Shown: positions 2,327 through 41,452 of the stretch, in pieces
Position numbering within the stretch: the first letter of the stretch is position 1
How the letters are laid out: the number at the start of each line of letters is the position of its first letter
Assembly: GCA_026003475.1 (NCBI GenBank)
Contig: BPHJ01000001.1
Span: 256,545-320,544, forward strand
Direction: 5' to 3'
Length of the DNA stretch: 64,000 nucleotides
Origin: Candidatus Kapaibacterium sp.
Lineage (GTDB): Bacteria > Bacteroidota > Ignavibacteria > Kapaibacteriales > NICIL-2
Translations under genes and position numbers: made by a program
Notes under the pieces: generated by a model
Told to the model about the DNA's origin: nothing
The model's input: the letters and a program-made list of their open reading frames with translations, nothing else
Database searches by the model: none

Positions 2327-2403
2327 TTTGTATTTTGCATCCCCTTGCGAAGGCAAACGAACGGTACACTTACCAAATGTTCAACTATTTCGGAGTACGT
2401 TTC

Positions 2404-4437: not shown

Positions 4438-4459
4438 GACGTTGGTGCCATTAGCGTTG

Positions 4460-4501
4460 CGGGGCAGGCAAGGGAATCGCTTCCTGCCCCGTGCTGTTTT
4501 T
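4460..4501 (+). terminator. Rho-independent terminator candidate after the BNR/T9SS gene
   Basis: 9-bp GC stem CGGGGCAGG…CCTGCCCCG followed by TGCTGTTTTTA. Confidence 0.5.
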
Positions 4502-4533
4502 AGTGTGGTGTTCAATCAAGGATTGAGTGTGCG

Positions 4534-5634
4534 GTGGAAAACCTTGACCTGCTTCGTACTCAGATCGGTGCTGTGATTGACCCCGACGTGGGTAAATCCC
4601 TGCAGGAACTTGGTGCACTTCATCGCATCGAACCAAGTGATGATGGGCATGTTCAGGTGTATGTGGAACTGATACCACCAATCTACCGGACGTTGGCACA
4701 GCACCTTGACCAAGCAATCGCATCCGCAGTGCAGGGCGTGGATGCCTCGATGTCGGTCACAGTGCATGTGCGTCCGTTAGTGGTTGAGCGAGCCGTACCA
4801 AGTGCGGTGCTACCGCAGGTGCAAGACACGATTGCTGTAGCCTCGGGTAAGGGTGGAGTTGGCAAGTCCACCGTCGCTGCAAATCTTGCGGCAACATTTT
4901 TGCTGGAAGGCTTGCACGTTGGGTTGCTCGATGCTGATATCTACGGTCCCAGCGCGCCGACACTGTTTGGTCTCGAGGGCGCAACGCTGCCGGCGGAAAA
5001 GCACGAGGATGGGCGCGTGGTCGGCTACCCGATTGAGCAATATGGCATCAAGGTTGCTTCAATGGGTTTCATCATGCAACGGGATCAGGCAGCGATCTTC
5101 CGCGGTCCGATGCTGGCTGGATACTTCCGCACACTGGTTGAGCAGATCCAGTGGGGGCAGCTCGATGCATTGGTGTTCGACCTGCCACCGGGAACAGGCG
5201 ACGTTCAACTCACGCTTGCACAGCAAGTCCCGCTCAGCGGCGCAGTGATTGTGACGACGCCCCAGCAACTATCGCTGGCCGACGTGCGCCGCAGTATTGC
5301 GATGTTCCGGCGGGTCAACGTCGAAATCATCGGTATCATCGAGAACATGAGCTACTTTGTTCCCCCCGATGCTCCAGACCGGTGCTACTACGTGTTCGGT
5401 CAGGGAGGTGGTGCCGAGCTTGCGCGGGAGGTTGGCGTTCCATTCTTGGGCGAGATTCCGTTGCACGACCACATCCGAACCGCTTGTGAGACCGGGTTAC
5501 CGGCAATGCTCAATCCGGAGCTTGCATCCACAGTCGCCGATGCATATCGGCATATCGCACAGGCTATCCTGGTCCGGTTGCGGCAGCTCAATGCCGAACG
5601 TCGCACGTCGCCGCACGTGGAGATTCGGCTATGA
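4534..5634 (+). CDS. apbC: Mrp/ApbC/NBP35-family Fe-S cluster carrier ATPase with N-terminal DUF59-like domain
   Basis: GTG start. P-loop VASGKGGVGKSTVAANLA. MinD/ParA-like deviant Walker A with conserved CxxC-region architecture. 366 aa. Confidence 0.9.
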   Translation: MENLDLLRTQIGAVIDPDVGKSLQELGALHRIEPSDDGHVQVYVELIPPIYRTLAQHLDQAIASAVQGVDASMSVTVHVRPLVVERAVPSAVLPQVQDTIAVASGKGGVGKSTVAANLAATFLLEGLHVGLLDADIYGPSAPTLFGLEGATLPAEKHEDGRVVGYPIEQYGIKVASMGFIMQRDQAAIFRGPMLAGYFRTLVEQIQWGQLDALVFDLPPGTGDVQLTLAQQVPLSGAVIVTTPQQLSLADVRRSIAMFRRVNVEIIGIIENMSYFVPPDAPDRCYYVFGQGGGAELAREVGVPFLGEIPLHDHIRTACETGLPAMLNPELASTVADAYRHIAQAILVRLRQLNAERRTSPHVEIRL

Positions 5635-7180: not shown

Positions 7181-8668
7181 GTGCCGAAGAAACAATCCAT
7201 GCTCAGCTTGTTCGGAAGTGCGGAGTTGGAGCGCGTCAAACTCGACCAGCCTCCTGCTCCAGCGACGGAGTCGTCCGGTGATGCTACAACGGTCTGGCAG
7301 CGGTGTCTTGCCATCATTGGCGACAACGTTTCGCCCCAGCACTATCGGACGTGGTTCGAGCCAATCAAGCCGCTCCGGTGTGAGGGCCGTGAATTGGTCC
7401 TCCAAGTTCCCAGTCAGTTTTTCTACGAGTGGCTCGAGGAGCACTACTACGGTTTGCTGCAGAAGACGCTCTACCAGGTGCTCGGCAGTGGCGCACGACT
7501 CCGGTACGAAGTAGTCGTCGAAAACAGTAGTGAAACGCTCGAGCAGCGCACCATTCGCTTGCCGGCATTTCGGCAATCGGGGTCTGCACCTGTCCAAGCG
7601 GCGTTACCATTTACACCGACTGCGCCCGATGTGGCTGATTTTACCGGCTTCCTCAACCGGCGCTACACGTTCGCAAACTTCATCGCTGGCGAAAGCAATC
7701 AGCTTGCGCATTCGGCTGCGCAAGCCGTCGCCGAACAGCCCGGTCGAACACGCTTCAATCCGTTGGTCATCTACGGTGCGACGGGGCTGGGGAAAACGCA
7801 CCTTGTTCAAGCTATCGGCAATCGTATCCTTGAACGAAACCGCACTCTGCGCGTGCTCTATACTACCAGCGAACGCTTCACGATTGAGTACGTCAACGCA
7901 ATTCAGAACAACAAGACTAACGAGTTCACTGCTTTCTACCGCAGTGTTGATGTGCTGATTGTTGACGACATACAATTTTTCGAGGGGAAGGAGAAAACAC
8001 AAGACAACTTTTTTCACACCTTCAACGCGCTCCATCAACTGGGCAAGCAGATCATCTTGACCAGCGACCGCCCACCCAAAGAGCTACGCGACGTTGACGA
8101 GCGGCTCATCTCGCGCTTTCAGTGGGGGCTGACCGCCGACATCCAACCGCCAGACTACGAAATGCGGCTTGCCATTCTGCAGCGCAAAAGCCAAGACGAA
8201 GGCGTTGATGTTCCCCGCGAGGTACTCGAGTACATCGCGCGGCATGTTACGACCAGTGTCCGCGAACTCGAAGGATGCCTCATTAGCTTGATTGCCAAAG
8301 TCTCGCTCGATGGAAGGCTGCCAAGCGTCGAGCTTGCAAAAGAAGTTCTACGGAGCATTCTCGGTCCACTCGATTCGCTGGCCGTAACGATGGACGACAT
8401 CAAGAGCGCTGTTGCTGCATACTTCAACATCAGCACCGAGCTGCTGGAAAGCAAGACACGAAAGCACGAAGTCGTCCTCCCGCGACAAGTGGCGATGTAT
8501 TTGGCAAAGCAACTGACGACTCTTTCGCTCAAGTCCATCGGCCTTCATTTTGGCGGACGGGACCATACGACCGTGCTCCACTCCATTCAAATGGTTGAAG
8601 GTTACCTGGCAACCGATCCAACGGTGGCACAAGCAGTCGAGCAGCTCCAGCGGAAGCTGAAAGCATAA
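7181..8668 (+). CDS. dnaA: Chromosomal replication initiator protein DnaA
   Basis: Walker A GATGLGKTHL, IILTSDRPPKEL, and C-terminal DNA-binding helix region …KSIGLHFGGRDHTTVLHS. 495 aa. Confidence 0.95.
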   Translation: MPKKQSMLSLFGSAELERVKLDQPPAPATESSGDATTVWQRCLAIIGDNVSPQHYRTWFEPIKPLRCEGRELVLQVPSQFFYEWLEEHYYGLLQKTLYQVLGSGARLRYEVVVENSSETLEQRTIRLPAFRQSGSAPVQAALPFTPTAPDVADFTGFLNRRYTFANFIAGESNQLAHSAAQAVAEQPGRTRFNPLVIYGATGLGKTHLVQAIGNRILERNRTLRVLYTTSERFTIEYVNAIQNNKTNEFTAFYRSVDVLIVDDIQFFEGKEKTQDNFFHTFNALHQLGKQIILTSDRPPKELRDVDERLISRFQWGLTADIQPPDYEMRLAILQRKSQDEGVDVPREVLEYIARHVTTSVRELEGCLISLIAKVSLDGRLPSVELAKEVLRSILGPLDSLAVTMDDIKSAVAAYFNISTELLESKTRKHEVVLPRQVAMYLAKQLTTLSLKSIGLHFGGRDHTTVLHSIQMVEGYLATDPTVAQAVEQLQRKLKA

Positions 8669-8860: not shown

Positions 8861-9343
8861 ATGAAACGTGTGCTACTTCTGGTTTGGCTGATCGCCTCTG
8901 GCATCGCCATTGCCCAGACCGTTCAGCGGAGCGTGGTTTCCAGCGGTGCAGTGCGTGCATCGAGCGGTTCGGTCGTGATGCAGGGGACCATCGGGCAACC
9001 TATCATCGGTAGTGGGGTCAATACCGAGCATCGCGCTGGTCACGGATTTTGGCACACCCTTGTTTCCAGTGTGAGCAGTGTGGAGCGCACCGATCCATTT
9101 CAGGTGCGGATCACGCCGCAGCCAGCGGTCACGGTTGCCACCATTGAGGTTGGTTGCACGCATGCAGTTAGTGCAGAGGTGCTGACACTGCAGGGGCAAC
9201 AGGTGGGCGCGGTTCGCTTTTCGTCCGATGCTGCCATGCAGCGTGGACAGCTTGATTGCAGCACCCTTGCCAGCGGGCTGTACTTGGTCCGCCTGCGGTG
9301 TGGGGAGCAGCAGCTATTCCTTCCGTTGATGATTGCAAAGTAA
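8861..9343 (+). CDS. Small secreted protein with T9SS C-terminal sorting domain
   Basis: Signal peptide MKRVLLLVWLIASGIAIAQ. C-terminal …LASGLYLVRLRCGEQQLFLPLMIAK is type-A-CTD-like. Confidence 0.5.
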   Translation: MKRVLLLVWLIASGIAIAQTVQRSVVSSGAVRASSGSVVMQGTIGQPIIGSGVNTEHRAGHGFWHTLVSSVSSVERTDPFQVRITPQPAVTVATIEVGCTHAVSAEVLTLQGQQVGAVRFSSDAAMQRGQLDCSTLASGLYLVRLRCGEQQLFLPLMIAK

Positions 9344-9382
9344 CCTACGTTGACATGTTTCACAAAAGCACGGAGTAGTCTC

Positions 9383-12300
9383 ATGAAGCGGTTGGTCCTG
9401 GTTTGTTTGCTGGTCTTGAGTGTGACCAGCGTGTTTGCGCAGATTCCGCGCGTGTTGTCGTACCAAGGGATATTGACTGATCCCGATGGGCGCATTCTGC
9501 CGGACGGGGAGTACACCCTAACGGTTCGACTCTACGATCGAGTGGATGCTACCGAGCCGATCTACGTGGAGGAGCATCGAGCCGTTGCGGTTCGAGGAGT
9601 CGTCAATCTGTTGATCGGGACGGTGGAGCCACTTCCGTGGAAGCTTTCCTTCGATCGGGTGTACTACGTGGGTCTGAGCATCAACGGTGGTGAGGAGCTT
9701 CGCCCGCGGACGATGCTGACAGCAGTGCCGTATGCGTTGCGCTCGGAGAGCGCGGCGGTGGCAGATGTGGCGAAGGGCTTGACGCCTGATGCCCTCAAAG
9801 GGGTCACTGTGCAGGCCACTCCAAGCGGTCCAGCCGGCGGTGACTTGATGGGGACCTATCCGAACCCCTACATTGGCAACAGCAAGGTGACTACACTCAA
9901 GATTGCCAGTTCTGCGGTGACGACCGACAAGTTAGCGCCTGGGGCCGTGACCGCGCCGAAACTCAACCAGATGGGAGCAGCTACTGGCGAATATCTTCGG
10001 TGGAATGGATCGCAGTGGGACCCTTCGCCGGTATCAACCGATGCATGGGCGTTGACGGGGAATACTATTAGCGGTACGCATTTTTTGGGCACCACGAATG
10101 CGCAGCCACTGGTGATACGGACCAGCAACACCGAACGGCTGCGGATTACCAGCAGTGGGAACGTTGGGATTGGCACCACCAGCCCATCGAATCTTCTGCA
10201 CATCGTGGGCTCGAGTGATCCTGTTCGAGTTCAGGGATTGAGTACCGATAACACGATCGATAATATCCTGGTTGTGGATGCCAATGGTGTGATGAAAATC
10301 CGCACCGCAACCAGTTTGTCTGGCTCGCTCGGCTGGAGCTTGACCGGGAATGGAAGCACAAATCCAGCAACTAATTTCCTTGGCACAACCGATGCAGTCG
10401 ACCTAGTCGTTCGCACCAACAACACAGAACGGCTTCGCGTTTCCAGCAGTGGGTTTGTCGGGATTGGAACATCCTCGCCAAGTGCTACCCTTGATGTCAA
10501 TGGCAGTGCACGGATGACCGGAAACCTCAGCGTCAACGGCGATGCAACGCTTGGGACATCGTCGAGCAATCAGCTTACAGTCAATGCACAAGTTGCGTCG
10601 GACCTGATTCCCACTACAACAAATACCTACGATCTTGGCATTACAAGCCTTCGTTGGCGGAATGGGTGGTTCGCAGGTACGGTAACAGCCGGCGGATTGA
10701 CACTCGACGGCTTTACCTCGGGATCTGTCCTGTTCGTTGGCAGTGGTGGTGCCCTGAGCGAAAACAATGCGACCTTTTTCTGGGATGATGTCAACATGCG
10801 GCTTGGGATTGGGACGAACGCACCGACGGCAAGGTTACACGTTGCAGGTACCGGCCGATTCGACGGGCAACTGACAGTAACTACGGGAGGGGCAGCAATC
10901 ACGGGCAATAGCACGGTGACGGGGACACTGGGTGTCAGCAGTGATGTCGGTGTCGGAGGAAATTTGACCGTGCAAGGTAACACTACACTTGGCGATGCCT
11001 CAAGCGACAACGTGACATTTACAGCCCGTGTGAATTCGAACATTCATCCTTCTGCTGATGCGAGCTACGATCTTGGCAGCAGCACTTTGCGGTGGAGGAA
11101 TGGTTGGTTCAGCGGGACGGTGACAGGGCAGAATGCGACGGTGACGAGTTTGACGCCTGGCTCAGTGGTGTTTGCTGGTACTGGAGGAGCATTGAGCCAG
11201 AACAATGCAAACTTTTTCTGGGACAACACCAACACGCGGCTTGGGATTGGGACGAACGCGCCGAGCCATCGGTTGCATGTGCATGCTCCGAGCTACAACG
11301 CAATCAATGTTACTAGTGCCGATAACACAGGTGCTGGTATTCGTTTCGATGCCAGCGGTAGTAGTGGGGGGCAGACATTTACCGTCTTATCAACAGGAAC
11401 AGGTGCTGGCGCAGGTGCTGGTAAACTCGGTTTTTTTGATGAAACAGGTAGCTTGTACAGAATGGTCATCGAGGGTACTACCGGCCACGTCGGCATCGGT
11501 ACAACAGCACCAAGCCAGCGATTGCACGTAGACGGCGGGCAGATTGCTGTAACGGGGAGCAGCGCTCCACCAGGCCCAGGTCCAGGACTCCAGCTTGGAA
11601 GCATCAATGGCAGTTATCGTTGGATCCAAAGCTATGATAACCAGCCACTGGCAATCAATCCACTCGGCAATAACGTCGGCATCGGTACGACCACCCCATC
11701 TACCGCGCTCCATGTTGCCCAAGACAATGCAACACCAGGAGGTGGTCAGCTCACCGTTTCTGGGAAGACTAACCAGAACAAACAAATCATTGTTGGGTTC
11801 AATACGACTGGTGACTACGGTCAAATTCAAGCAGTTGAACAAAGCGTCGCAACACGTCCTCTGGCGCTCAATCCTGTTGGGGGGAATGTTGGCATTGGTT
11901 TGACAGCACCCTCAGAGATGCTCCACGTTGCTGGGAATACCCGCGTGGATGGAAATTTGAGTGTGCTTGGCAATACCCAACTTGGCGATGCCACGAGCGA
12001 CAACGTGACATTTACAGCCCGTGTGAATTCGAACATTGATCCTGCTACCGATGCGAGCTACGATCTTGGCAGCAGCAGTTTGCGGTGGAAGGATGGCTGG
12101 TTCAGCGGGACGGTCACCTCGCAGAATGCCACGGTAACGAGTCTCTCGCCGGGGTCGGTGGTGTTTGCGGGCACCGGCGGGGCGTTGAGCCAGAACAATG
12201 CGAACTTTTTCTGGGACAACACCAACACACGGCTTGGGATTGGGACGAACGCACCGACGGCTGCGCTCGACCTTCGATTGGAGAACAACGAGCGCGGATT

Positions 12301-15300
12301 AGTCATTCGTGGTGGTGCCGCGCCAGCAGATAACTTCTTCCGAATTGAAGAAAACAGTGGGCAGTATCGGTGGCGCATTGATCAGAACTATGATCTCTTT
12401 GTGACTGATGGCACTGGGAATGATCTTGCTGTGTGGCGGAACAATGGCTACATCGGCATTGGAACGACTAGCCCAGCAGTACAACTTCACCTTAACGATG
12501 CGGGGAGTAATCCGGTCTCTTTGCGCTTGACAAATGTTACCGCTGCATCCGGCTTCGATGTTGGTATTACAACGTCGGGTACAGCTGAACTCCGTCACCA
12601 AGACGATTTCCCGGTTGAGGTGTATGTCAACAATACGCGAGCACTGCGTATCGAGCCAACAAGCGGTACTGCAAATCAGGTCCCGAACATTATTGGGGGA
12701 GATGCTGGTAATGCTGTTGGATCTGGCAACGAAGGTTCTGTCATTGGCGGTGGGCGCGGGCATAGTATTGATGCAGACAATTCTGTCATTGCCAGTGGAC
12801 TCAATCACGCTATCTCTGGTCCAAGCTCAGGGATCGTAGCTGGTGTTGCAAATTCGATTGAAAGTGAAAGTGCATTCATTGGTGCCGGAGCAGAAAATAT
12901 GATCGCGAACACCGCTGATTTTTCTGCAGTTGTCGCCGGGTCTCAAAATGGTGTGAGTGGATCGTATGCGTTCATCGGTTCTGGTTCCTTGAATAGTGCA
13001 TCTGGTGCCTATTCCGGTATCCTGGCAGGTGCCGAGAACGGTGTCAGTGGAGATGCTGCAATGGCAATTGGAATGGGCTTGTCTGCGAATTCCTACCGCG
13101 AAGTTGTGGTCGGATCGTACAATACCAACTATTCTGCGTTGAGCGAGACAACATGGAATGCTTCGGACCGACTTTTCGTTGTCGGAAATGGACAGAACAG
13201 CGGAACGCGTTCAGATGCTCTTATCATTTGGAAAAGTGGTAATGCACAGTTCTATTACGATGTCATGCTTGGCGATGCCTCAAGCGACAACGTTACGTTC
13301 GCTGCGCGGGTGAATTCGAACATTGATCCTGCTACCGATGCGAGCTACGATCTTGGCAGCAGCAGTTTGCGGTGGAAGGATGGTTGGTTCAGTGGGACGG
13401 TCACCTCGCAGAATGCAACGGTAACGAGTCTCTCGCCGGGGTCGGTGGTGTTTGCGGGCACCGGCGGAGCATTGAGCCAGAACAATGCAAACTTGTTCTG
13501 GGATGATGTAAACACGCGGCTTGGGATTGGAACGAACACACCCTCAACGACGCTGCATGTCGCTGGTGTGGCAACAATCACAAGCGATGCCTCGGTTGGT
13601 GGGAATTTGAGTGTTACTGGGAGCGCAACTATTGGTACCGGTTTGACTGTCTCCAACGGGGGTGCCACGATTACCGGAAATACCAGCACGACAGGGGATC
13701 TGTCTGCCGGTGGTAACTTGACGATCAATGGTAACGCCACGCTCGGTGATGCAGGAGGCGATCAGGTTACCATTAATGCTGCAACAGTCTCGGTACCCAA
13801 TATCCCAAGCAGTTCGACGGCAACCGACTTGGTCGTGTGGAATGCCAATAACCTTGAGCGTCGTGCGGCCAGTGGTTTGATTTCTACCTACGCGTGGATG
13901 CTTGGCGGTAATGCGATTACCAATCCAGCGACGGAGTGGATCGGCACAAGTTCGGCGCAACCATTCGTAGTCCGTGCAGGTGGTACGCAGACGCTTCAAT
14001 TCAACACCAACGGCAGCATCCAGCGAGACAATGGTGGCAATACACGCGGCACAAATGCGATTGATCTCCAAATCAGCCGGAGTAGTGCAAGTCAAGTTGC
14101 CAGCGGAAGTGCCGCAGTCATCGTTGGCGGGACTAATAACACAGCAAGCGGTGTGCAGAGCTTTGTCGGTGCAGGCGATAACAACACCGCTTCGCAGCAG
14201 TATGCAGCGGTAGTTGCTGGGATAAGCAATAGTGCAAGTGGTGCGCAGAGCTTCGTCGGTGGCGGGCAGAGCAATCAAGCAAACGGCAGCTACAGCACTG
14301 TCGCCGGTGGGCAAGGCAATGTCGCGCAAGGACAGTATTCGGCTATCCCTGGCGGGTTCAACATGAAGGTGGGTGACCGCAGCTTTGGCTTCAGTGGGCA
14401 GACGTCCGGGACAACGACCGATTTGAGCGGCTCCAGTCAGATTGCTGCCTTTGTGGATGTTGACCTGTGGCTCTACAACGTGCGCAACCAGGCATCGCAA
14501 TTGCGGCTCTACGAGCCCTCGGGTTCTGGGATCAACTACACTGCATTCCAAGCGCAGGCGCAAAGCGCTGATATCGTCTATACTCTTCCGGCAAGTATTC
14601 CCGCTGGTGGAGGGCTCTTGCAGACGGATGCTTCGGGGAATTTGAGCTGGATTAGCAGCACAGGCACCTTCTGGTCCTTGACGGGCAACGCTGCAACAAA
14701 TCCGGCAACGCAGTTCCTCGGCACAAGCGATGCGCAGCCGCTTGTAGTTCGCACCAATAACCTTGAGCGCATGCGTGTGACCAGCAGTGGCATTGTGCAA
14801 ATCCAAAATCAGGCCAGCGGCACCCCAACGACTCAGTTCCATGTTCTTGGCGGTAACAATGGTGCGGGGGCTACGGAGGTTGTCGTGCAAGCGGGACAAA
14901 ATCAGCTGAATACGAATCTCATTGAGTGGCGTGACCAGTATGGGACCCCACTCGGTGCAATCGATCCCAGTGGCTTTGTCGGGATAGGCATTAGTACATC
15001 GCTTGGGGCGGCACTGCACGTCATGAGCAATGGAGCACAGCCGGCAGCATTGTTCGAAAACGGTACCGTTCAGGTCGGCACCACTGGAACACCGATGAAT
15101 GCGATAATGCACGGGACGATTACTGTTGATCCTCCCTCGATCGGTGCAAATTCCTCGGCGACTGTGAGTGTTACAATTACTGGAGTCGAACCTGGCGATC
15201 GCATATTTCTGACTCCACCAGATACGTTCGAAGATGATCTGATTTTCCAAGGTGCTGCAGTCACAGCGTCTGATACTGTTACAATTAAGATCCGCAACAT

Positions 15301-15361
15301 ACTTGGCATTTCAGTTGATGGAAATGCACTCGATTGGAACTACCTTGTCATCAAACCATAA
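9383..15361 (+). CDS. Giant (approx. 1990 aa) secreted phage-tail-fibre-like / beta-roll surface fibre protein; no recognisable T9SS CTD and no S74 domain
   Basis: Signal peptide MKRLVLVCLLVLSVTSVFAQ. At least eight occurrences of the motif (N/F/H)VGIGT(T/S)xPSxxLH(V/I). YadA-head/Hep_Hag-like 14-residue Gly/Ser/Asn repeats (e.g. SFVGAGDNNTASQQ / YAAVVAGISNSASGAQ / SFVGGGQSNQANGSY). Three near-identical ~93-aa internal modules. The N-terminal part, …PSGPAGGDLMGTYPNPYIGNSKVTTLKIASSAVTTDKLAPGAVT, is homologous to the repeat unit of the downstream 1247-aa fibre protein. Confidence 0.7.
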   Translation: MKRLVLVCLLVLSVTSVFAQIPRVLSYQGILTDPDGRILPDGEYTLTVRLYDRVDATEPIYVEEHRAVAVRGVVNLLIGTVEPLPWKLSFDRVYYVGLSINGGEELRPRTMLTAVPYALRSESAAVADVAKGLTPDALKGVTVQATPSGPAGGDLMGTYPNPYIGNSKVTTLKIASSAVTTDKLAPGAVTAPKLNQMGAATGEYLRWNGSQWDPSPVSTDAWALTGNTISGTHFLGTTNAQPLVIRTSNTERLRITSSGNVGIGTTSPSNLLHIVGSSDPVRVQGLSTDNTIDNILVVDANGVMKIRTATSLSGSLGWSLTGNGSTNPATNFLGTTDAVDLVVRTNNTERLRVSSSGFVGIGTSSPSATLDVNGSARMTGNLSVNGDATLGTSSSNQLTVNAQVASDLIPTTTNTYDLGITSLRWRNGWFAGTVTAGGLTLDGFTSGSVLFVGSGGALSENNATFFWDDVNMRLGIGTNAPTARLHVAGTGRFDGQLTVTTGGAAITGNSTVTGTLGVSSDVGVGGNLTVQGNTTLGDASSDNVTFTARVNSNIHPSADASYDLGSSTLRWRNGWFSGTVTGQNATVTSLTPGSVVFAGTGGALSQNNANFFWDNTNTRLGIGTNAPSHRLHVHAPSYNAINVTSADNTGAGIRFDASGSSGGQTFTVLSTGTGAGAGAGKLGFFDETGSLYRMVIEGTTGHVGIGTTAPSQRLHVDGGQIAVTGSSAPPGPGPGLQLGSINGSYRWIQSYDNQPLAINPLGNNVGIGTTTPSTALHVAQDNATPGGGQLTVSGKTNQNKQIIVGFNTTGDYGQIQAVEQSVATRPLALNPVGGNVGIGLTAPSEMLHVAGNTRVDGNLSVLGNTQLGDATSDNVTFTARVNSNIDPATDASYDLGSSSLRWKDGWFSGTVTSQNATVTSLSPGSVVFAGTGGALSQNNANFFWDNTNTRLGIGTNAPTAALDLRLENNERGLVIRGGAAPADNFFRIEENSGQYRWRIDQNYDLFVTDGTGNDLAVWRNNGYIGIGTTSPAVQLHLNDAGSNPVSLRLTNVTAASGFDVGITTSGTAELRHQDDFPVEVYVNNTRALRIEPTSGTANQVPNIIGGDAGNAVGSGNEGSVIGGGRGHSIDADNSVIASGLNHAISGPSSGIVAGVANSIESESAFIGAGAENMIANTADFSAVVAGSQNGVSGSYAFIGSGSLNSASGAYSGILAGAENGVSGDAAMAIGMGLSANSYREVVVGSYNTNYSALSETTWNASDRLFVVGNGQNSGTRSDALIIWKSGNAQFYYDVMLGDASSDNVTFAARVNSNIDPATDASYDLGSSSLRWKDGWFSGTVTSQNATVTSLSPGSVVFAGTGGALSQNNANLFWDDVNTRLGIGTNTPSTTLHVAGVATITSDASVGGNLSVTGSATIGTGLTVSNGGATITGNTSTTGDLSAGGNLTINGNATLGDAGGDQVTINAATVSVPNIPSSSTATDLVVWNANNLERRAASGLISTYAWMLGGNAITNPATEWIGTSSAQPFVVRAGGTQTLQFNTNGSIQRDNGGNTRGTNAIDLQISRSSASQVASGSAAVIVGGTNNTASGVQSFVGAGDNNTASQQYAAVVAGISNSASGAQSFVGGGQSNQANGSYSTVAGGQGNVAQGQYSAIPGGFNMKVGDRSFGFSGQTSGTTTDLSGSSQIAAFVDVDLWLYNVRNQASQLRLYEPSGSGINYTAFQAQAQSADIVYTLPASIPAGGGLLQTDASGNLSWISSTGTFWSLTGNAATNPATQFLGTSDAQPLVVRTNNLERMRVTSSGIVQIQNQASGTPTTQFHVLGGNNGAGATEVVVQAGQNQLNTNLIEWRDQYGTPLGAIDPSGFVGIGISTSLGAALHVMSNGAQPAALFENGTVQVGTTGTPMNAIMHGTITVDPPSIGANSSATVSVTITGVEPGDRIFLTPPDTFEDDLIFQGAAVTASDTVTIKIRNILGISVDGNALDWNYLVIKP
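10988..11268 (+). repeat. Intragenic dispersed repeat module, copy 1 (~280 bp; encodes LGDASSDNVTFTARVNSNI…RLGIGTNAPS)
   Basis: Direct nucleotide comparison with copies at 11981 and 13268. Roughly 88–95% identity by eye. Confidence 0.8.
11981..12260 (+). repeat. Intragenic dispersed repeat module, copy 2
   Basis: Encodes LGDATSDNVTFTARVNSNIDPATDASYDLGSSSLRWKDGWFSGTVTSQNATVTSLSPGSVVFAGTGGALSQNNANFFWDNTNTRLGIGTNAPT. The central ~200 nt are nearly identical to copy 3. Confidence 0.8.
13268..13548 (+). repeat. Intragenic dispersed repeat module, copy 3
   Basis: Encodes LGDASSDNVTFAARVNSNIDPATDASYDLGSSSLRWKDGWFSGTVTSQNATVTSLSPGSVVFAGTGGALSQNNANLFWDDVNTRLGIGTNTPS. Confidence 0.8.
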
Positions 15362-15405: not shown

Positions 15406-16110
15406 ATGAGGCGATGGATACAGATTCTCGGCTTGGCCTTAGTGCTCGTTGCGAGTGCAGTAGGACAGGATCGCGTTCCTAATGGCTGGTGGCAACAAGA
15501 GGACTCCCGTACTCGAACGGGAGTCCAGCCACTTGGCTATGGCCTGGAAACAATCCTCCAGCTTTCTCCCAAGCAGTTCGAGGAACTTCTCTGCGATGGC
15601 AGGCGCATCCCGAACATCGGTCTGATGGCGCAGGAGGTGTTTCCCCTTGTTCCTGAAGCAGTCCGCCCACCATCAAAACAATGCCAACACTGGGCAATAG
15701 ATTACTCACGGCTCGTGCCGATTCTCATCGCTGCAATCCAACAGCAACAGCAGCAAATTGCGCAGCTCCGCCAAACTGTCGAACAGTTGCAGGCGATGGT
15801 ACAAGTGCCCACCGCAGGGACAAGCTCCCAGCATGTCCGCCTTGATGGCAATTGGCTGGGTGATAACATCCCTAATCCACACGATGGAACAACGGTGATT
15901 CCGTACTACGTGCCTGCGGGCGTTGGGCGTGCCCAGCTCGAAGTCAGCGATGCAACGGGACGGACCGTTCGCACCGTCGAGCTGGTGGCGCGCGAGCAAT
16001 GGGCTCAAGTGACACTCGATATGAGCTTGCTCAGTTCGGGCACGTATGAGTACCGCTTGCTCTTCGATGGACGTGTTGTTGCCACCAAACAGATGCAATT
16101 GGTCAAGTGA
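15406..16110 (+). CDS. Stand-alone secreted Peptidase-S74-like (phage-fibre intramolecular chaperone) domain protein with Gln-rich coiled coil and T9SS C-terminal sorting domain
   Basis: Signal peptide MRRWIQILGLALVLVASAVGQ; the ORF is also open from 15334. The S74-like segment RRIPNIGLMAQEVFPLVPEAV…IDYSRLVPILIAAIQQQQQQIAQLRQ is homologous to the C-terminal region of the 16280..20023 protein. C-terminal NIPNPHDGTTVIPYYVPAGVGRAQLEVSDATGRTVRTVELV…SGTYEYRLLFDGRVVATKQMQLVK is a type-A CTD. Confidence 0.6.
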   Translation: MRRWIQILGLALVLVASAVGQDRVPNGWWQQEDSRTRTGVQPLGYGLETILQLSPKQFEELLCDGRRIPNIGLMAQEVFPLVPEAVRPPSKQCQHWAIDYSRLVPILIAAIQQQQQQIAQLRQTVEQLQAMVQVPTAGTSSQHVRLDGNWLGDNIPNPHDGTTVIPYYVPAGVGRAQLEVSDATGRTVRTVELVAREQWAQVTLDMSLLSSGTYEYRLLFDGRVVATKQMQLVK

Positions 16111-16279: not shown

Positions 16280-19200
16280 ATGAAACATGTGTCGTTTTTC
16301 TGTGCAGCCGTTCTTGGGGTTATCTTCACCGTTACGACCCCATCTTCCGCGCAGGTGGGCAGCCTGATCAACTACGGCGCTATCATCAAAGATTCTCTGC
16401 GCCTGGAAAATGCGGCTTCTTTTGTTCGCCTTCCATCGGACGGGTCACTCCGCTGGGGTGAGGACATGGTTGGAATGCTGGTAAGCGCTGGCTTGACAGT
16501 TTCTCGTACATGGACACTACCCGACGAAAGCGGTATCATCCTAACATCGGCGAGAACGTTCAGCGGCGACGTCAGTGGTGTGTACAACAACTTGCAGCTT
16601 GGCAGTGGCGTGGTCGGTACGGCCGAGCTTGCCGATGGTGCGGTGACGGATGCGAAGGTGAACGACGTTTCGTGGACGAAGATCACGGGAGCGCCGACGA
16701 GTTTTCCGCCGAGTGGGAGTGCTGGTGGTGATTTGACGGGGACGTATCCGAACCCGACGATAGCCAACGATGCGGTGACCAGTGCGAAGATTGCCGACGG
16801 GACGATCACCGATGCTGACATCAGCAGCAGTGCGGCGATAGCGGTTAGCAAGCTGGCACCGGGCAGCAATGGGCAAGTGTTGACGACGGTTGGTGGAGTG
16901 CCGACGTGGTCGAGTGTGAGCATCACGGAGACTGATCCGGTGTGGACGGCAGCGGAGCCCAGCTATGGGAACTTGACGCAGAACGATACGGTTTCGGGAA
17001 CGTGGACGTTTAGCAACGCAATCAACGGCAGCATCACAGGTAATGCGGCGACAGCGACGGCGTTGCAGACAGCGCGCAACTTTTCGCTATCGGGCGATGT
17101 GACGGCGCCGGCGGTGTCGTTTGATGGGACGGGGAACGTGACGTTGACGACGACGCTTGCCGATGGTTCAGTGAGCACGGCCAAGCTTGCCGATGGTGCG
17201 GTGACGGATGCGAAGGTGAACGACGTTTCGTGGACGAAGATCACGGGAGCGCCGACGAGTTTTCCGCCGAGTGGGAGTGCTGGTGGTGATTTGACGGGGA
17301 CGTATCCGAACCCGACGATAGCCAACGATGCGGTGACGAGTGCGAAGATTGCCGACGGGACGATCACCGATGCTGACATCAGCAGCAGTGCAGCGATAGC
17401 GGTCAGCAAGCTGGCGGCGGGCAGTGATGGGCAAGTGTTGACGACAGTGGGAGGAGTGCCGACGTGGTCGAGCGTGAGCATCACGGAGACTGATCCGGTG
17501 TGGACGGCGGCGGAGCCGAGTTATGGTAACTTGACGCAGAACGAGACGGTTTCGGGAACGTGGACGTTTAGCAACGCAATCAACGGCAGCATCACAGGTA
17601 ATGCGGCGACAGCGACGGCGTTGCAGACAGCGCGCAACTTTTCGCTATCGGGCGATGTGACGGCGCCGGCGGTGTCGTTTGATGGGACGGGGAACGTGAC
17701 GTTGACGACGACGCTTGCCGATGGTTCAGTGAGCACGGCCAAGCTTGCCGATGGTGCGGTGACGGATGCGAAGGTGAGCGATGTATCGTGGACGAAGATC
17801 ACGGGAGCGCCGACGAGTTTTCCGCCGAGTGGGAGTGCTGGTGGTGATTTGACGGGGACGTATCCGAACCCGACGATAGCCAACGATGCGGTGACGAGTG
17901 CGAAGATTGCCGACGGGACGATCACCGATGCTGACATCAGCAGCAGTGCAGCGATAGCAGTTAGCAAGCTGGCACCGGGCAGCAATGGGCAAGTGTTGAC
18001 GACAGTGGGAGGAGTGCCGACGTGGTCGAGCGTGAGCATCACGGAGACTGATCCGGTGTGGACGGCAGCGGAGCCCAGCTATGGGAACTTGACGCAGAAC
18101 GATACGGTTTCGGGAACGTGGACGTTTAGCAACGCAATCAACGGCAGCATCACAGGTAATGCGGCGACGGCGACGGCATTGCAGACAGCGCGCAACTTTT
18201 CGCTATCGGGCGATGTGACGTCGCCGGCGGTGTCGTTTGATGGGACGGGGAACGTGACGTTGACGACGACGCTTGCCAATGGTTCAGTGAGCACGGCCAA
18301 GCTTGCCGATGGTGCGGTGACGGATGCGAAGGTGAGCGATGTTTCGTGGACGAAGATCACGGGAGCGCCGACGAGTTTTCCGCCGAGTGGGAGTGCTGGT
18401 GGTGATTTGACGGGGACGTATCCGAACCCGACGATTGCCAACGATGCGGTGACGAGTGCGAAGATTGCCGACGGGACGATCACCGATGCTGACATCAGCA
18501 GCAGTGCAGCGATAGCGGTTAGCAAGCTGGCACCGGGCAGCAATGGGCAAGTGTTGACGACGGTGGGAGGAGTGCCGACGTGGTCGAGCGTGAGCATCAC
18601 GGAGACTGATCCGGTGTGGACGGCGGCGGAGCCGAGTTATGGTAACTTGACGCAGAACGAGACGGTTTCGGGAACGTGGACGTTTAGCAACGCAATCAAC
18701 GGCAGCATCACAGGTAATGCGGCGACAGCGACGGCGTTGCAGACAGCGCGCAACTTTTCGCTATCGGGCGATGTGACGGCGCCGGCGGTGTCGTTTGATG
18801 GGACGGGGAACGTGACGTTGACGACGACGCTTGCCAATGGTTCAGTGAGCACGGCCAAGCTTGCCGACGGTGCGGTGACGGATGCGAAGGTGAGCGATGT
18901 ATCGTGGGGGAAGATCACGGGAGCGCCGACGAGTTTTCCGCCGAGTGGGAGTGCTGGTGGTGATTTGACGGGGACGTATCCGAACCCGACGATAGCCAAC
19001 GATGCGGTGACCAGTGCGAAGATTGCCGATGGGACGATCACCGATGCTGACATCAGCAGCAGTGCGGCGATCGCGGTCAGCAAGCTTGCGGCGGGCAGTG
19101 ATGGGCAAATTCTCGTCACAAGTAGCGGTTCACCGCAATGGGCAAATGCAAGCACGCTCAGCGGTAGTTTCTGGGCACTCGGGGGCAATAGTGCTACTGC

Positions 19201-20023
19201 AGACCTGTCCCTGGGGACCACGAGCGATGACGATGTTGTATTCCTCCGGAACAATACTGAGGCGTTCCGTATCGGCTCTGTCAGTGGTAACCCTGTGCTC
19301 AACCTTGGTTCAGCAACTCCAGCGTATCGGATAGACTTGCCGAACAACTCGAACATTGCGATCGGGCGGATACGCGCGCAGGGGTACGCGACGTACTCAT
19401 CACGAGCGTGGAAGGAGGACATTCGTCCCATCGAGGGTGCCCTTGAGAAAGCACTTCGGCTGACGGGGGTACAATACCAGTGGAAGCCGGAGTATGGCGG
19501 CACGCGCGATATTGGGTTTGTGATGGAGGAGGTAGCGGAGGTAGTACCGGAGGTAGTAGACCGGGATCCGAAGACAGGCGAGTATCTTGGGATGGAGTAC
19601 AGTCGGTTGACGGCGTTGCTTGTGGAAGCGCTCAAGGAGGAACACCGCCGCAACGAGGAACTGCGTGCCGAGCTTGTGCAGTTGCGGCAGATGGTCGAGC
19701 AGCTCGCCACACGGCAGCAGGTAACCGCTGGCACATCACATATCACCGTTCGCGTTGAAGGTGACTGGCTTGGGCAAAACGTTCCCAACCCGCACGACGG
19801 AACGACGACGATACCGTGCTACGTTCCTGCAGGAGTTGGAAGCGCGGAGCTTGCCATCAGCGATGCAGCTGGGCGTCTGGTTCGTCGTGTTGTGCTCAGC
19901 GCACGTGATACGTGGACGAACGTAACGGTAGACATGTCACTCCTTGCGTCGGGGACGTACGAATACCAGCTCGTCTTCGACGGTCGTGTCGTTGCCAGCA
20001 AGCAGATGCAGCTGGTCAAGTAG
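16280..20023 (+). CDS. Phage-tail-fibre-like secreted protein (1247 aa): 4.4 tandem 186-aa repeats, then Peptidase-S74 intramolecular chaperone domain, then T9SS C-terminal sorting domain
   Basis: Signal peptide MKHVSFFCAAVLGVIFTVTTPSSAQ. The repeat unit contains …AKLADGAVTDAKVNDVSWTKITG…TSAKIADGTITDADISSSAAIAVSKL…, reminiscent of tail-fibre motifs. The S74 region is SSRAWKEDIRPIEGALEKALRLTGVQYQWKPEYGGTRDIGFVMEEVAEVVPEVV…YLGMEYSRLTALLVEALKEE. The CTD is NVPNPHDGTTTIPCYVPAGVGSAELAISDAAGRLVRRVVLS…SGTYEYQLVFDGRVVASKQMQLVK. Confidence 0.8.
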   Translation: MKHVSFFCAAVLGVIFTVTTPSSAQVGSLINYGAIIKDSLRLENAASFVRLPSDGSLRWGEDMVGMLVSAGLTVSRTWTLPDESGIILTSARTFSGDVSGVYNNLQLGSGVVGTAELADGAVTDAKVNDVSWTKITGAPTSFPPSGSAGGDLTGTYPNPTIANDAVTSAKIADGTITDADISSSAAIAVSKLAPGSNGQVLTTVGGVPTWSSVSITETDPVWTAAEPSYGNLTQNDTVSGTWTFSNAINGSITGNAATATALQTARNFSLSGDVTAPAVSFDGTGNVTLTTTLADGSVSTAKLADGAVTDAKVNDVSWTKITGAPTSFPPSGSAGGDLTGTYPNPTIANDAVTSAKIADGTITDADISSSAAIAVSKLAAGSDGQVLTTVGGVPTWSSVSITETDPVWTAAEPSYGNLTQNETVSGTWTFSNAINGSITGNAATATALQTARNFSLSGDVTAPAVSFDGTGNVTLTTTLADGSVSTAKLADGAVTDAKVSDVSWTKITGAPTSFPPSGSAGGDLTGTYPNPTIANDAVTSAKIADGTITDADISSSAAIAVSKLAPGSNGQVLTTVGGVPTWSSVSITETDPVWTAAEPSYGNLTQNDTVSGTWTFSNAINGSITGNAATATALQTARNFSLSGDVTSPAVSFDGTGNVTLTTTLANGSVSTAKLADGAVTDAKVSDVSWTKITGAPTSFPPSGSAGGDLTGTYPNPTIANDAVTSAKIADGTITDADISSSAAIAVSKLAPGSNGQVLTTVGGVPTWSSVSITETDPVWTAAEPSYGNLTQNETVSGTWTFSNAINGSITGNAATATALQTARNFSLSGDVTAPAVSFDGTGNVTLTTTLANGSVSTAKLADGAVTDAKVSDVSWGKITGAPTSFPPSGSAGGDLTGTYPNPTIANDAVTSAKIADGTITDADISSSAAIAVSKLAAGSDGQILVTSSGSPQWANASTLSGSFWALGGNSATADLSLGTTSDDDVVFLRNNTEAFRIGSVSGNPVLNLGSATPAYRIDLPNNSNIAIGRIRAQGYATYSSRAWKEDIRPIEGALEKALRLTGVQYQWKPEYGGTRDIGFVMEEVAEVVPEVVDRDPKTGEYLGMEYSRLTALLVEALKEEHRRNEELRAELVQLRQMVEQLATRQQVTAGTSHITVRVEGDWLGQNVPNPHDGTTTIPCYVPAGVGSAELAISDAAGRLVRRVVLSARDTWTNVTVDMSLLASGTYEYQLVFDGRVVASKQMQLVK
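16627..19095 (+). repeat. Tandem in-frame repeat array, period 558 bp (186 aa), ~4.4 copies, ~97% nucleotide identity
   Basis: The anchor 'gcttgccgatggtgcggtgacgg' recurs at 16627, 17185, 17743, 18301 and 18859, each exactly 558 nt apart. A few SNPs are distributed mosaically: N/S in AKV(N/S)DVSW, APGSNGQ/AAGSDGQ, QNDTVSG/QNETVSG, TAPAVSF/TSPAVSF. Confidence 0.95.
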
Positions 20024-20048
20024 CATCCGCTGTTGGCAAACCGATGGT

Positions 20049-20086
20049 GGGGCAGGCCTTGTAGGTCTGCCCCCTGTGTTTTGTGG
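20049..20086 (+). terminator. Rho-independent terminator candidate after the fibre gene cluster
   Basis: GGGGCAGG…(loop)…CTGCCCCC hairpin followed by TGTGTTTTGTGG. Confidence 0.45.
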
Positions 20087-20190
20087 CGATCACAGTAGAG
20101 TTGTCCCCCAGAAGTGGCAATTTCCCGTAGTGCATTCCGTCTTGTGCAGCAACTGCTTCTGTTCCACCGTTCTACCGTAGGAGAGTTCGA

Positions 20191-22449
20191 ATGGCATTCG
20201 ATTTTTCGACGATTCGCCGCGTCTATGAACAATTGCCGGAGCGTCTTGCTGATGCACGTGGCATCCTCGGTCGGCCGATGACGCTTGCGGAAAAAATCCT
20301 CTATGCCCACATGGCGGCGTTGCCATCAGCACCGCCGATACGCGGACAGGATTACGTCGAGTTCTACCCCGACCGCGTTGCGATGCAGGATGCTACGGCA
20401 CAGATGGCGTTGCTGCAGTTCATGAGTGCGGGTATCCCGCGGGTTGCGGTTCCTACGACGGTACACTGCGACCACCTCATCCGAGCCGAGCGCGGAGCCA
20501 AAGAGGATCTTCAAACGGCGCTGATCGAAAACGATGAGGTCTTCAACTTCCTCGCTTCGGTTTCGAAAAAGTATGGCATTGGGTTCTGGAAGCCTGGTGC
20601 AGGTATCATCCATCAAGTGGTGCTCGAAAACTATGCCTTCCCCGGTGGCATGATGATTGGCACCGACTCTCACACACCCAATGCTGGCGGCTTGGGAATG
20701 CTTGCGATTGGTGTTGGGGGAGCCGATGCCGTGGACGTGATGGCGGGCATGCCATGGGAATTGCTCATGCCAAAGCATATCGGCGTACGCTTGACCGGAC
20801 GCATGAGTGGATGGACTGCACCAAAGGATGTGATTCTCAAGCTGGCTGGAATTCTCACGGTCAAAGGTGGGACCGGCGCGATCATCGAGTACTTCGGTGA
20901 TGGATGCGCAACCATCAGCGCGACGGGCAAAGCAACCATTTGCAACATGGGCGCTGAAGTTGGTGCGACAACCTCGATCTTCCCCTACGACGAGGCAATG
21001 GATCGCTACCTGCGCGCGACCGGCCGTTCTGACGTCGCCGATGCAGCACGCCCACTGGCAGAGTACCTCCGCCACGATGACGACGTCGAACGCAATCCGG
21101 AGAAGTACTTCGATCGCATCATCGAGATTGATCTTTCCACACTCGAACCGCACATCAACGGACCCTTCACGCCCGACCGTGCAATGCCAATCAGCGAGTT
21201 TGTCAAGGCTGTCGAGCAGAACGGATGGCCAGCCGATTTGCGAGTAGCGCTGATTGGCTCGTGTACGAACTCCTCGTATGAGGACATGACGCGCGTGGCC
21301 GAGATCGCCGACTATGCTGCTAAACACGGACTCAAAGCTAAGTGTGAGCTTACGATCACGCCGGGCTCTGAACAAATCCGCGCAACGATGGAACGCGATG
21401 GAATCCTGGAAAAACTCGAAGCAATTGGTGCAACCGTCCTCGCGAACGCATGCGGTCCGTGTATCGGGCAGTGGAAACGACACGACGTCAAAAAAGGCGA
21501 CAAAAACTCGATCATCACGTCCTTCAATCGGAACTTCAGCGGTCGTAACGACGGCAATCCCGATACGCATGCTTTCGTTGCATCACCTGAAACGGTCCTC
21601 GGGTTTGCCCTGACCGGTGATTTGCGCGTTGACTTCACCACGCAGCCGATCAACGGTTCGGTGCTCAATCCACCGCGAGGAGAAGAACTTCCAGCCCGTG
21701 GATTCGTGCCGGATCCCGAAGGGTACGTCCCCCCTGCCGAGGATGGCAGCACCATCGAAGTGATCATCAAACCCGATTCTCAGCGCTTGCAACGCCTGGA
21801 GCCATTTCCGCCACCCAGACCAGAAGAATTTATCGACATGGTGCTTTTGCTCAAAGTCAAGGGCAAGTGCACGACCGACCACATCTCCCCGGCGGGTCCG
21901 TGGCTTCGCTTCCGCGGACATTTGGACAACATCTCCAACAACATGTTCACCGGCGCAACCAATGCCTTCAATGGCAAGCTCAACTCAGCAAAGAACGTCT
22001 TTACCGGTGAGTATGCCGAAGTACCGCAGGTTGCGCGGGACTACAAAGCGCGTGGCGTCTCGTGGATCGTCGTTGGTGAGGAAAACTACGGCGAAGGTTC
22101 CTCGCGCGAACATGCCGCGATGGAACCGCGCTATTTGGGCGGGAAGGTGATTTTGGTCAAGTCGTTTGCGCGTATTCACGAGACCAACCTCAAAAAGCAG
22201 GGCATGCTACCGCTGGTATTCGACAATCCTGCCGACTACGACCTCATCGGCGAGGATGACCGTTTCACGCTCGATGTACGGCAGCTCCGTCCAGCAGAGC
22301 CGATGGAGTTGCTCATTCGAAAACCCGATGGAAGCGAGCATCGCATTCTCGTTCGGCATTCGATGAATGAGCACCAAATCGAGTGGTTCTGGGCGGGCAG
22401 CGCACTCAACCTGATGGCACGCCGCCTGCGCCAATCGTCGAATGCATAA
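20191..22449 (+). CDS. acnA: Aconitate hydratase (mitochondrial-type ~750-aa aconitase family)
   Basis: Aconitase signatures [12 protein letters not shown] and [11 protein letters not shown]; 4Fe-4S ligand cysteines. 752 aa. Confidence 0.85.
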
Positions 22450-41370: not shown

Positions 41371-41452
41371 ATGCGAAACCATCGGTACTGGTACTGTGTT
41401 ACTGTCGTGAGCTGGTATTTTTACATCCGTCTGCTCCATGATGGAGGCTGTA

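Follow-up and report, generated by a model that had tools for sequence, protein, structure and literature searches.

The locus described here raises two questions: how a gene of Candidatus Kapaibacterium sp. came to hold an array of near-identical tandem copies of a 558-nucleotide (nt) unit, and what kind of protein these copies build. The gene lies in a stretch of 64,000 nt from contig BPHJ01000001.1 (positions 256,545 to 320,544), referred to below as the window, and all coordinates are those of the window unless another sequence is named. Its product of 1247 amino acids (aa) was found by exact look-up to be identical to NCBI GIV53726.1 (KatS3mg039_0244, Candidatus Kapaibacterium sp.), encoded on a 2.16-Mb contig. 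From the analysis presented here, the array is probably the modular shaft of a variable-length, trimeric fibre on the cell surface of a Kapaibacterium (class Kapabacteria of the Bacteroidota), exported by way of type IX secretion (T9SS) and assembled with an S74 domain, and it evolves by unequal crossing-over together with gene conversion.

Comparison of the sequence with itself at a lag of 558 nt, and a repeat search that returned five copies, both gave a unit spacing of exactly 558 nt with zero insertions or deletions. Near-perfect identity at this lag begins at about 16626 and ends at about 19108-19124. In the in-frame register from 16628 the array spans 16628-19108 and holds four complete copies followed by about 0.45 of a fifth, which decays past offset 249-265 or so, for a total of about 4.45 copies. 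Pairwise nucleotide identity among the four full copies is 96.8-98.2%, with copies 2 and 4 the closest pair across the whole unit, and at the protein level the units differ by 2-6 residues; the partial fifth copy is 94.0-95.6% identical to the full copies. Tandem Repeats Finder was silent on the array, its period limit of 500 being below 558. An earlier note on this DNA had described an exact 558-nt period with anchors at 16627, 17185, 17743, 18301 and 18859, 4.4 copies of about 97% nucleotide identity, and four variable residues. The anchors are all correct, the copy number and identity agree with those measured here, and every one of the named residues is present in the translation. APGSNGQ is found in copies 1, 3 and 4 and AAGSDGQ in copies 2 and 5; QND is found in copies 1 and 3 and QNE in copies 2 and 4; TSPAVSF is confined to copy 3; and the variable residue of AKVxDVSW is N in copies 1 and 2 and S in copies 3, 4 and 5.

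On the forward strand, a single open reading frame (ORF) of 1247 aa runs through every copy without a stop codon. The four full copies have 25 variable sites, 19 of them synonymous in this frame (76%) and 6 non-synonymous. Four identical ORFs of 173 aa, and four of 88 aa, had also been attributed to the complementary strand as shadows of the repeat. Their status as shadows holds and there are four of 88 aa, but only three have 173 aa, accompanied by edge versions of 184 and 383 aa, and none of the copies are identical (4-5 residue differences in the 173-aa set and 3-12 in the 88-aa set). The 173-aa frame looks fairly synonymous, at 16 of the 25 sites, because its wobble position is the one used by the sense frame. 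The idea that these ORFs are genes was ruled out by this sharing of the wobble position, by the presence of one stop per unit, by the absence of any family match for the 173-aa frame, and by similar shadows elsewhere, namely inside the aconitase gene (414 aa) and the upstream gene (568 aa).

The variable sites carry a record of exchange between the copies. All three possible 2:2 partitions of the four full copies are represented: copies 1 and 2 are set against 3 and 4 at offsets 34, 38 and 534, copies 1 and 4 against 2 and 3 at offset 260, and copies 1 and 3 against 2 and 4 at five consecutive sites at offsets 323-359. The four-gamete test applied to the full copies gave 23 incompatible site pairs, and sites of like pattern are clustered (p<1e-5 in 100,000 permutations). 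When the fifth copy was included, sites 218-240 united copies 2 and 5, and sites 152 and 206 united copies 1 and 5. Recombination between copies is required to place all three partitions in clustered blocks, and the data thus demand exchange between the repeat copies in this array. The likeness of copies 1 and 3, and of 2 and 5, that had been pointed out is real in these local blocks but does not extend over the whole unit, where copies 2 and 4 are nearest.

Comparison with the units of other strains indicated what kinds of exchange took place. Most alleles in the array are old polymorphisms re-sorted among the units; for example, copy 2 has, at the five sites of block 218-240, the allele that the terminal copy bears in every strain compared. 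For the block that joins copy 1 to 3 and copy 2 to 4, on the other hand, both alternative alleles were found solely in the window array, which fits duplication of a block of two units. Shared old alleles and the pattern of two-unit duplication together call for both misalignment by whole units and conversion of short tracts. The reading of the mosaic as a signature of gene conversion and unequal crossing-over, put forward in the earlier note, is therefore upheld by the clustered partitions and by the alleles common to units of other strains.

Seven orthologues, that of the window included, were compared. They have a common N-terminus of 116 aa and a common C-terminus of 388 aa, with differing shafts between (689-1389 aa in all). 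In contig L012 the shaft is a single unit, and the length of 689 aa is exactly 1247 less three times 186. In L002 (753 aa) it is a 64-aa head with one unit, in L001 (895 aa) a 64-aa head with two units, and in the window four units; this series provides the variation in copy number between strains that had been anticipated for such an array. The other three orthologues have other cassettes, these being one 205-aa unit in L009 (708 aa), segments of 205, 476 and 205 aa in L008 (1389 aa), and further cassettes in L003 (1183 aa). The cassette junctions are located at a recurring motif, LADGxVTxAK. Tandem copies (at least two, with at least 90% aa identity) were present in 38 of 120 homologues, with periods of 44-328 aa.

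Two further observations concern the structure of the units. Those of L009 and L008 contain an insertion of 19 aa (VAQNNLIVGNASGQGSLLA) between two LA dipeptides, around unit offset 225; the APGSNGQ units of the window resemble this type minus the insertion, which suggests microhomology-mediated deletion within units. In L013 a 733-aa gene (3216-5417 of that contig, protein P0004) consists of the N-terminus of the upstream large gene, one unit and the C-terminus of the fibre, with the intervening genes missing. It may be a real deletion/fusion variant or a short-read chimera formed via the common modules.

Units are alike within a genome (97-98% in the window and 97.7% in L001), yet between genomes they are only 86-92% identical, despite gene flanks in L002, L008, L009 and L012 that have 98-99% DNA identity to the window. 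This combination shows concerted evolution of the units within genomes. Identity of the terminal partial copy is higher with its terminal counterparts in other strains (97.2-97.6%) than with the internal units of the window array, which is the classic edge effect of unequal crossing-over. A static array of old duplications, held alike by purifying selection on the protein and patterned by recurrent mutation with no exchange, would account for the strong conservation of the units at the protein level. Selection on the protein cannot, however, hold synonymous sites 97-98% alike when the window unit is 7.5-8% diverged, mostly synonymously, from the unit of L002 or L012 (43-45 nt differences against 9-13 aa differences). 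Nor is recurrent mutation expected to produce five consecutive sites of one partition and five others of another; the number of units varies across strains; and a static array should group unit 1 with unit 1 across strains, the opposite of what is seen. We consider a static array very improbable.

In place of general homologous recombination, a system dedicated to diversification could be invoked, for example a diversity-generating retroelement or one of the invertible or shufflon type, since the gene encodes a fibre of the receptor-binding type, a class often targeted by such systems. The substitutions in the array, however, are not adenine-specific, with C/T, C/G and G/T common, and the variable sites are mostly synonymous, while the variants are gains or losses of whole units. 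No reverse transcriptase or recombinase was seen among the window ORFs scanned, in a scan that was incomplete. Such a system is hardly credible as the source of this pattern.

How far the copy number can be trusted depends on the assembly. The metagenome-assembled genomes (MAGs) from the Katase hot spring are metaFlye assemblies of PacBio HiFi reads, whose N50 was 10.5 kb and whose quality was above Q20 (PMC9671151). Reads of this N50 are longer than the 2.5-kb array, and single reads should span it; the copy number and the phasing of single-nucleotide polymorphisms (SNPs) in the window are probably reliable. The mosaic SNPs or the copy number could instead be products of assembly, through a chimeric consensus of strains or misplaced reads. 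The genome is indeed metagenome-assembled, several closely related hot-spring populations with the near-identical flanks given above exist, and the repeats have broken or distorted other assemblies. As the earlier note had warned for short reads, two short-read contigs, L004 (bacterium HR20) and L010, terminate inside the array, and shorter variants must be taken with caution for this reason; gene length in short-read MAGs is untrustworthy for this fibre family. An artefact of this type would nonetheless have had to arise in HiFi reads that cross the array and are anchored in unique flanks, while leaving the frame intact through every copy, three quarters of the variable sites synonymous, and the blocks of like pattern coherent rather than scattered. 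In L003, another HiFi MAG and from the sample that gave the window, the shaft is likewise long and structured. We therefore regard an assembly artefact as improbable.

The nature of the protein was examined with profile, structure and alignment methods (Table 1). The DUF5907 profile (PF19264) matched with 55.6 bits against a cutoff of 27, in five stretches, one per unit; no paper on DUF5907 was found in the literature searched. The repeat units also match many phage tail-fibre PHROGs, with E-values down to 6e-15, and are 34-60% identical over parts of the unit to annotated long tail fibres of Acinetobacter, Vibrio and Synechococcus phages, so that the label of fibre used in the earlier note is appropriate. 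The full 186-aa unit is restricted to close relatives and distant homologues match sub-modules only, so that the unit is a higher-order repeat of smaller fibre modules. The N-terminal domain had zero Pfam or PHROG matches; it may serve as the base or anchor of the fibre.

Beyond the array, the Peptidase_S74 profile (PF13884) matched residues 1040-1093 with an E-value of 7e-13 and 49 bits, the cutoff being 22. The match opens at profile position 1 with S1040 of the sequence S1040-S-R-A-W-K1045, and in the aligned C-termini of homologues both S1040 and K1045 are conserved to at least 90%. In an AlphaFold2 (AF2) model of the last 307 aa, the S74 region has a predicted local distance difference test score (pLDDT) of 80-91 and is followed by a helix of some 40 residues. 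The top Foldseek match in the PDB was the intramolecular chaperone/autoprocessing (S74) domain of MyRF, 7dc3_B (E 1.6e-4, template modelling score 0.60 on the target), and 3gw6 was also listed; a sequence search of the PDB gave MyRF alone, and that marginally. S74 is not C-terminal in this protein, since about 150 residues, comprising the coiled coil and a T9SS sorting domain, lie beyond it. The sorting domain scored 27.9 bits with TIGR04183 (cutoff 23) and, marginally, 27.1 bits with PF18962 (cutoff 27; residues 1169-1237). It was modelled by AF2 as a beta-sandwich (pLDDT 76-86), with a weak Foldseek match to the C-terminal domain (CTD) of mirolase, 8qb1 (E 0.015).

With units and a C-terminus that match phage tail-fibre families, and an S74 domain of the sort typical of phage fibres, the gene might be thought to belong to a prophage or a phage-derived particle, for example a tailocin, in which case the repeats would be those of a true phage tail fibre. 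Phage virion proteins, however, have no need of a Sec signal peptide or a T9SS sorting domain, and the relatives on viral contigs are only 36-38% identical, with no sign of recent exchange with known phages. The locus is chromosomal, with dnaA at 7181-8668, aconitase at 20191-22449, and recG and typA farther along; other T9SS cargo is encoded nearby, and no phage genes (capsid, tail tube, sheath, baseplate or terminase) were found among the window ORFs scanned. A phage origin of this kind is quite improbable.

The fibre gene is the last of four co-oriented genes, and the same four-gene order occurs in L001, L002, L003, L004 and L012. Orthologues of the second, 2003-aa gene encode 733 (HR20), 1291 and 1619 aa; conservation is seen at their ends, and HR20 lacks about 4.3 kb of the interior. 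The gene also contains repeats, about 300 nt long and 62-87% identical, at 10520, 10958, 11951 and 13238. The product of the third gene, of about 234 aa, has 50% identity to the C-terminal 200 aa of the fibre, and its gene always comes next after a large fibre-like gene lacking an S74 or sorting domain. About 35 protein clusters match it, and those that are named come from Kapabacteria or related hot-spring bins. The 2003-aa ORF and an overlapping 258-aa ORF were also considered as one frameshifted gene; this was rejected on the ground that relatives have two genes (733-1619 aa and 237-261 aa).

The surroundings of the cluster vary. In L001, L002, L003 and L012, a second S74 protein (about 1030 aa) follows the fibre gene, where the window was compared over 20024-20190, and the cluster is preceded by a large gene on the minus strand (1178-1252 aa in complete copies). 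The homology of the window to these four contigs ends exactly at the fibre stop codon. L003 has a second cluster in tandem. The differing neighbours and the tandem cluster of L003 show that the cluster moves or duplicates. Among the ORFs of the window scanned, five bear a CTD, including two more upstream with T9SS sorting domains (771 and 748 aa, within 11-4437). IgGFc_binding proteins are encoded downstream at 31199-33616 on the minus strand (805 aa) and 41438-44416 on the plus strand (992 aa). With sorting-domain and IgGFc_binding ORFs around the cluster, the region is rich in secreted or surface proteins.

Table 1. Features of the fibre gene, its repeat array and the gene cluster in the window
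Feature	Coordinates	Strand	Basis
First cluster gene, 160-aa protein with T9SS sorting domain	8861..9343	+	Pfam, NCBIfam; same position in L001, L003, L004, L013
Second cluster gene, 2003-aa tail-fibre-like protein without S74 or sorting domain, with diverged internal repeats of its own	9350..15361	+	profile matches
Third cluster gene, about 234 aa: signal peptide, S74-like domain without the Ser/Lys pair, coiled coil, T9SS sorting domain	15406..16110	+	profiles, alignment
Fibre gene, 1247 aa	16280..20023	+	ORF/translation; Pfam DUF5907, Peptidase_S74, Por_Secre_tail
Putative Sec-type signal peptide (MKHVSFFCAAVLGVIFTVTTPSSA/Q)	16280..16351	+	judged by eye from the translation, without a predictor
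N-terminal domain conserved in orthologues	16352..16627	+	98% nt identity in L002, L008, L009, L012
Repeat unit 1 (186 aa)	16628..17185	+	lag-558/repeat comparison
Shadow ORFs on the antisense strand (three of 173 aa, one to a unit, and 88-aa ORFs nested within); not genes	16963..18600	-	frame analysis
Repeat unit 2; block at offsets 218-240 is the terminal-copy allele (AAGSDGQ)	17186..17743	+	copy alignment
Repeat unit 3	17744..18301	+	copy alignment
Repeat unit 4, nearest to unit 2 (98.2%)	18302..18859	+	copy alignment
Terminal partial unit, about 249 nt, decaying to about 19124	18860..19108	+	lag-558 scan, cross-strain comparison
Fibre tip region before the cleavage site, conserved in orthologues	19109..19393	+	alignment of homologous C-termini; AF2 pLDDT <50, fold not resolved
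Peptidase_S74 intramolecular chaperone/autoprocessing domain, S1040 and K1045 (S-x4-K)	19397..19558	+	Pfam, alignment, AF2, Foldseek
Long helix between S74 and sorting domain, probable trimeric coiled coil	19598..19723	+	AF2 helix spanning 167-208 of the last 307 aa
T9SS type A C-terminal sorting domain	19784..20020	+	TIGR04183, PF18962, AF2, Foldseek
Strong terminator-like hairpin closing the cluster: 11-bp stem, 8 G-C pairs, T-rich tail	20049..20073	+	

Several points weigh against our interpretation of the array and its product. The unit counts and the exchange are read from assemblies, which qualifies any statement that exchange is ongoing or that copy number is heterogeneous within the population. 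The KatS3mg039 tag was linked to the HiFi paper by inference; the paper uses names of the form 'mgNNN', and mg039 is absent from its main text (PMC9671151). Among the orthologues compared, the HiFi data set comprises the window and L003 only, and most of the shorter orthologues are short-read contigs, one of them at 2.8x coverage, in which the arrays are possibly collapsed; the true spread of copy number is uncertain on that account. A rod-like shaft is suggested solely by homology to the shafts of phage fibres, since the AF2 monomer model, which covered one unit and the next head, was uninformative (pLDDT 58, predicted template modelling score 0.21). Finally, export by the T9SS is predicted from signals in the protein itself.

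The closest parallel to the array is found in the Periscope Proteins (SasG/Aap, Rib and Sgo_0707), bacterial surface proteins of variable length (PMC8201768). As in the present gene, their long tandem repeats are highly identical in DNA, the number of repeats varies among close homologues through intragenic recombination (the shorter forms here coming from short-read contigs), and the repeats are believed to act as a stalk governing how far a terminal domain stands out from the cell. Periscope Proteins, however, are mostly monomeric strings of globular domains with LPXTG anchors in Gram-positive bacteria. The protein described here is not of this construction: it has modules of phage tail fibres, is probably trimeric and intertwined, and has a predicted T9SS export route and a putative self-cleaving chaperone domain. 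Its shaft also varies by swaps of cassettes, beyond changes in copy number.

Resemblance in overall plan is found in the S74 subgroup of the mosaic adhesive trimer (MAT) fibres of Bdellovibrio (PMC10769870). Both are chromosomal tail-fibre-like proteins with a signal peptide, a long repetitive shaft and a C-terminal region containing S74 with its Ser...Lys motif; in both, modules are exchanged in mosaic fashion between paralogues, and several such genes are clustered. The beta-rich N-terminal domain of the MAT proteins (Bdello_MAT_N in NCBIfam, about 130 aa behind the signal peptide) gave no match in the fibre, and the 2003-aa protein scored 21.5 bits against a cutoff of 60. Since the fibre lacks this domain, it is not a MAT member. 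The MAT proteins end with S74, whereas the present protein continues beyond it with a coiled coil and a T9SS sorting domain, and its host, unlike Bdellovibrio, is not known to be a predator.

Long tail fibres and tailspikes of phages that carry a C-terminal intramolecular chaperone, such as endosialidase K1F (3GW6) and T5 pb1 (4UW8), have the S74 fold and catalytic pair in common with the fibre; their shaft modules are homologous over parts of the unit, and the architecture is likewise modular and prone to recombination. The fibre differs from them in that it does not belong to a virion, carries a secretion signal at either end, and has S74 in an internal rather than a terminal position. With T9SS type A cargo, such as the gingipains and SprB-type adhesins, it has in common an N-terminal Sec signal, a C-terminal beta-sandwich sorting domain scoring above the TIGR04183 cutoff, and clustering with other CTD proteins. 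Known T9SS cargo has its sorting domain cut off by the PorU sortase. The present protein, in contrast, has a putative self-cleaving domain between its functional part and the sorting domain, and thus the fibre could detach itself from its own signal.

These features suggest the following mechanism. The fibre protein would be exported by the Sec route, would probably be trimerised by its S74 chaperone domain, and would cross the outer membrane via the T9SS by means of its sorting domain; probable cleavage at Ser1040 would then expose the tip. The location at the surface, the trimeric rod shape and the self-cleavage are suggested by the sequence features and homologies described above. At the level of DNA, the near-identical units, bounded by LADGxVTxAK, would misalign in replication or recombination. 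Unequal crossing-over would add or remove whole units, and gene conversion of short tracts would shuffle blocks of SNPs between units. As a result, the array would be homogenised within a genome, with the edge copy escaping, and strains would come to differ in shaft length and cassettes. Variation in length may alter the reach of an adhesive tip or help to evade phages or predators that make use of the fibre.

The phenomenon itself is of a known kind, and the repeat is a good illustration rather than a surprise; for this lineage and secretion context no description of it was found in the open literature covered. More unusual is that a phage-type chaperone domain, predicted to cleave itself, is coupled to a signal for T9SS sorting, a combination that has gone unstudied; in a search of the literature on T9SS with tail fibres or intramolecular chaperones, the T9SS term was absent from the papers listed. 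A tentative extension, which we hold to be rather unlikely, is that the S74 module doubles as the carrier of the T9SS signal, so that, once the protein has been exported, a cut at Ser1040 would release a mature fibre devoid of its signal and the customary sortase step would not be needed. The S74-like, CTD-bearing product of the third gene might act in trans for the 2003-aa protein, as a chaperone and as an escort in its secretion, and the array would tune the reach of a self-releasing fibre. The coupling of S74 to the T9SS makes the timing of cleavage relative to export a testable question. The locus provides a clean example, backed by long reads, of the 'periscope' principle familiar from Gram-positive pathogens, with variable-length shafts of near-identical repeats occurring also in tail-fibre-like surface proteins of uncultured thermophilic Bacteroidota.

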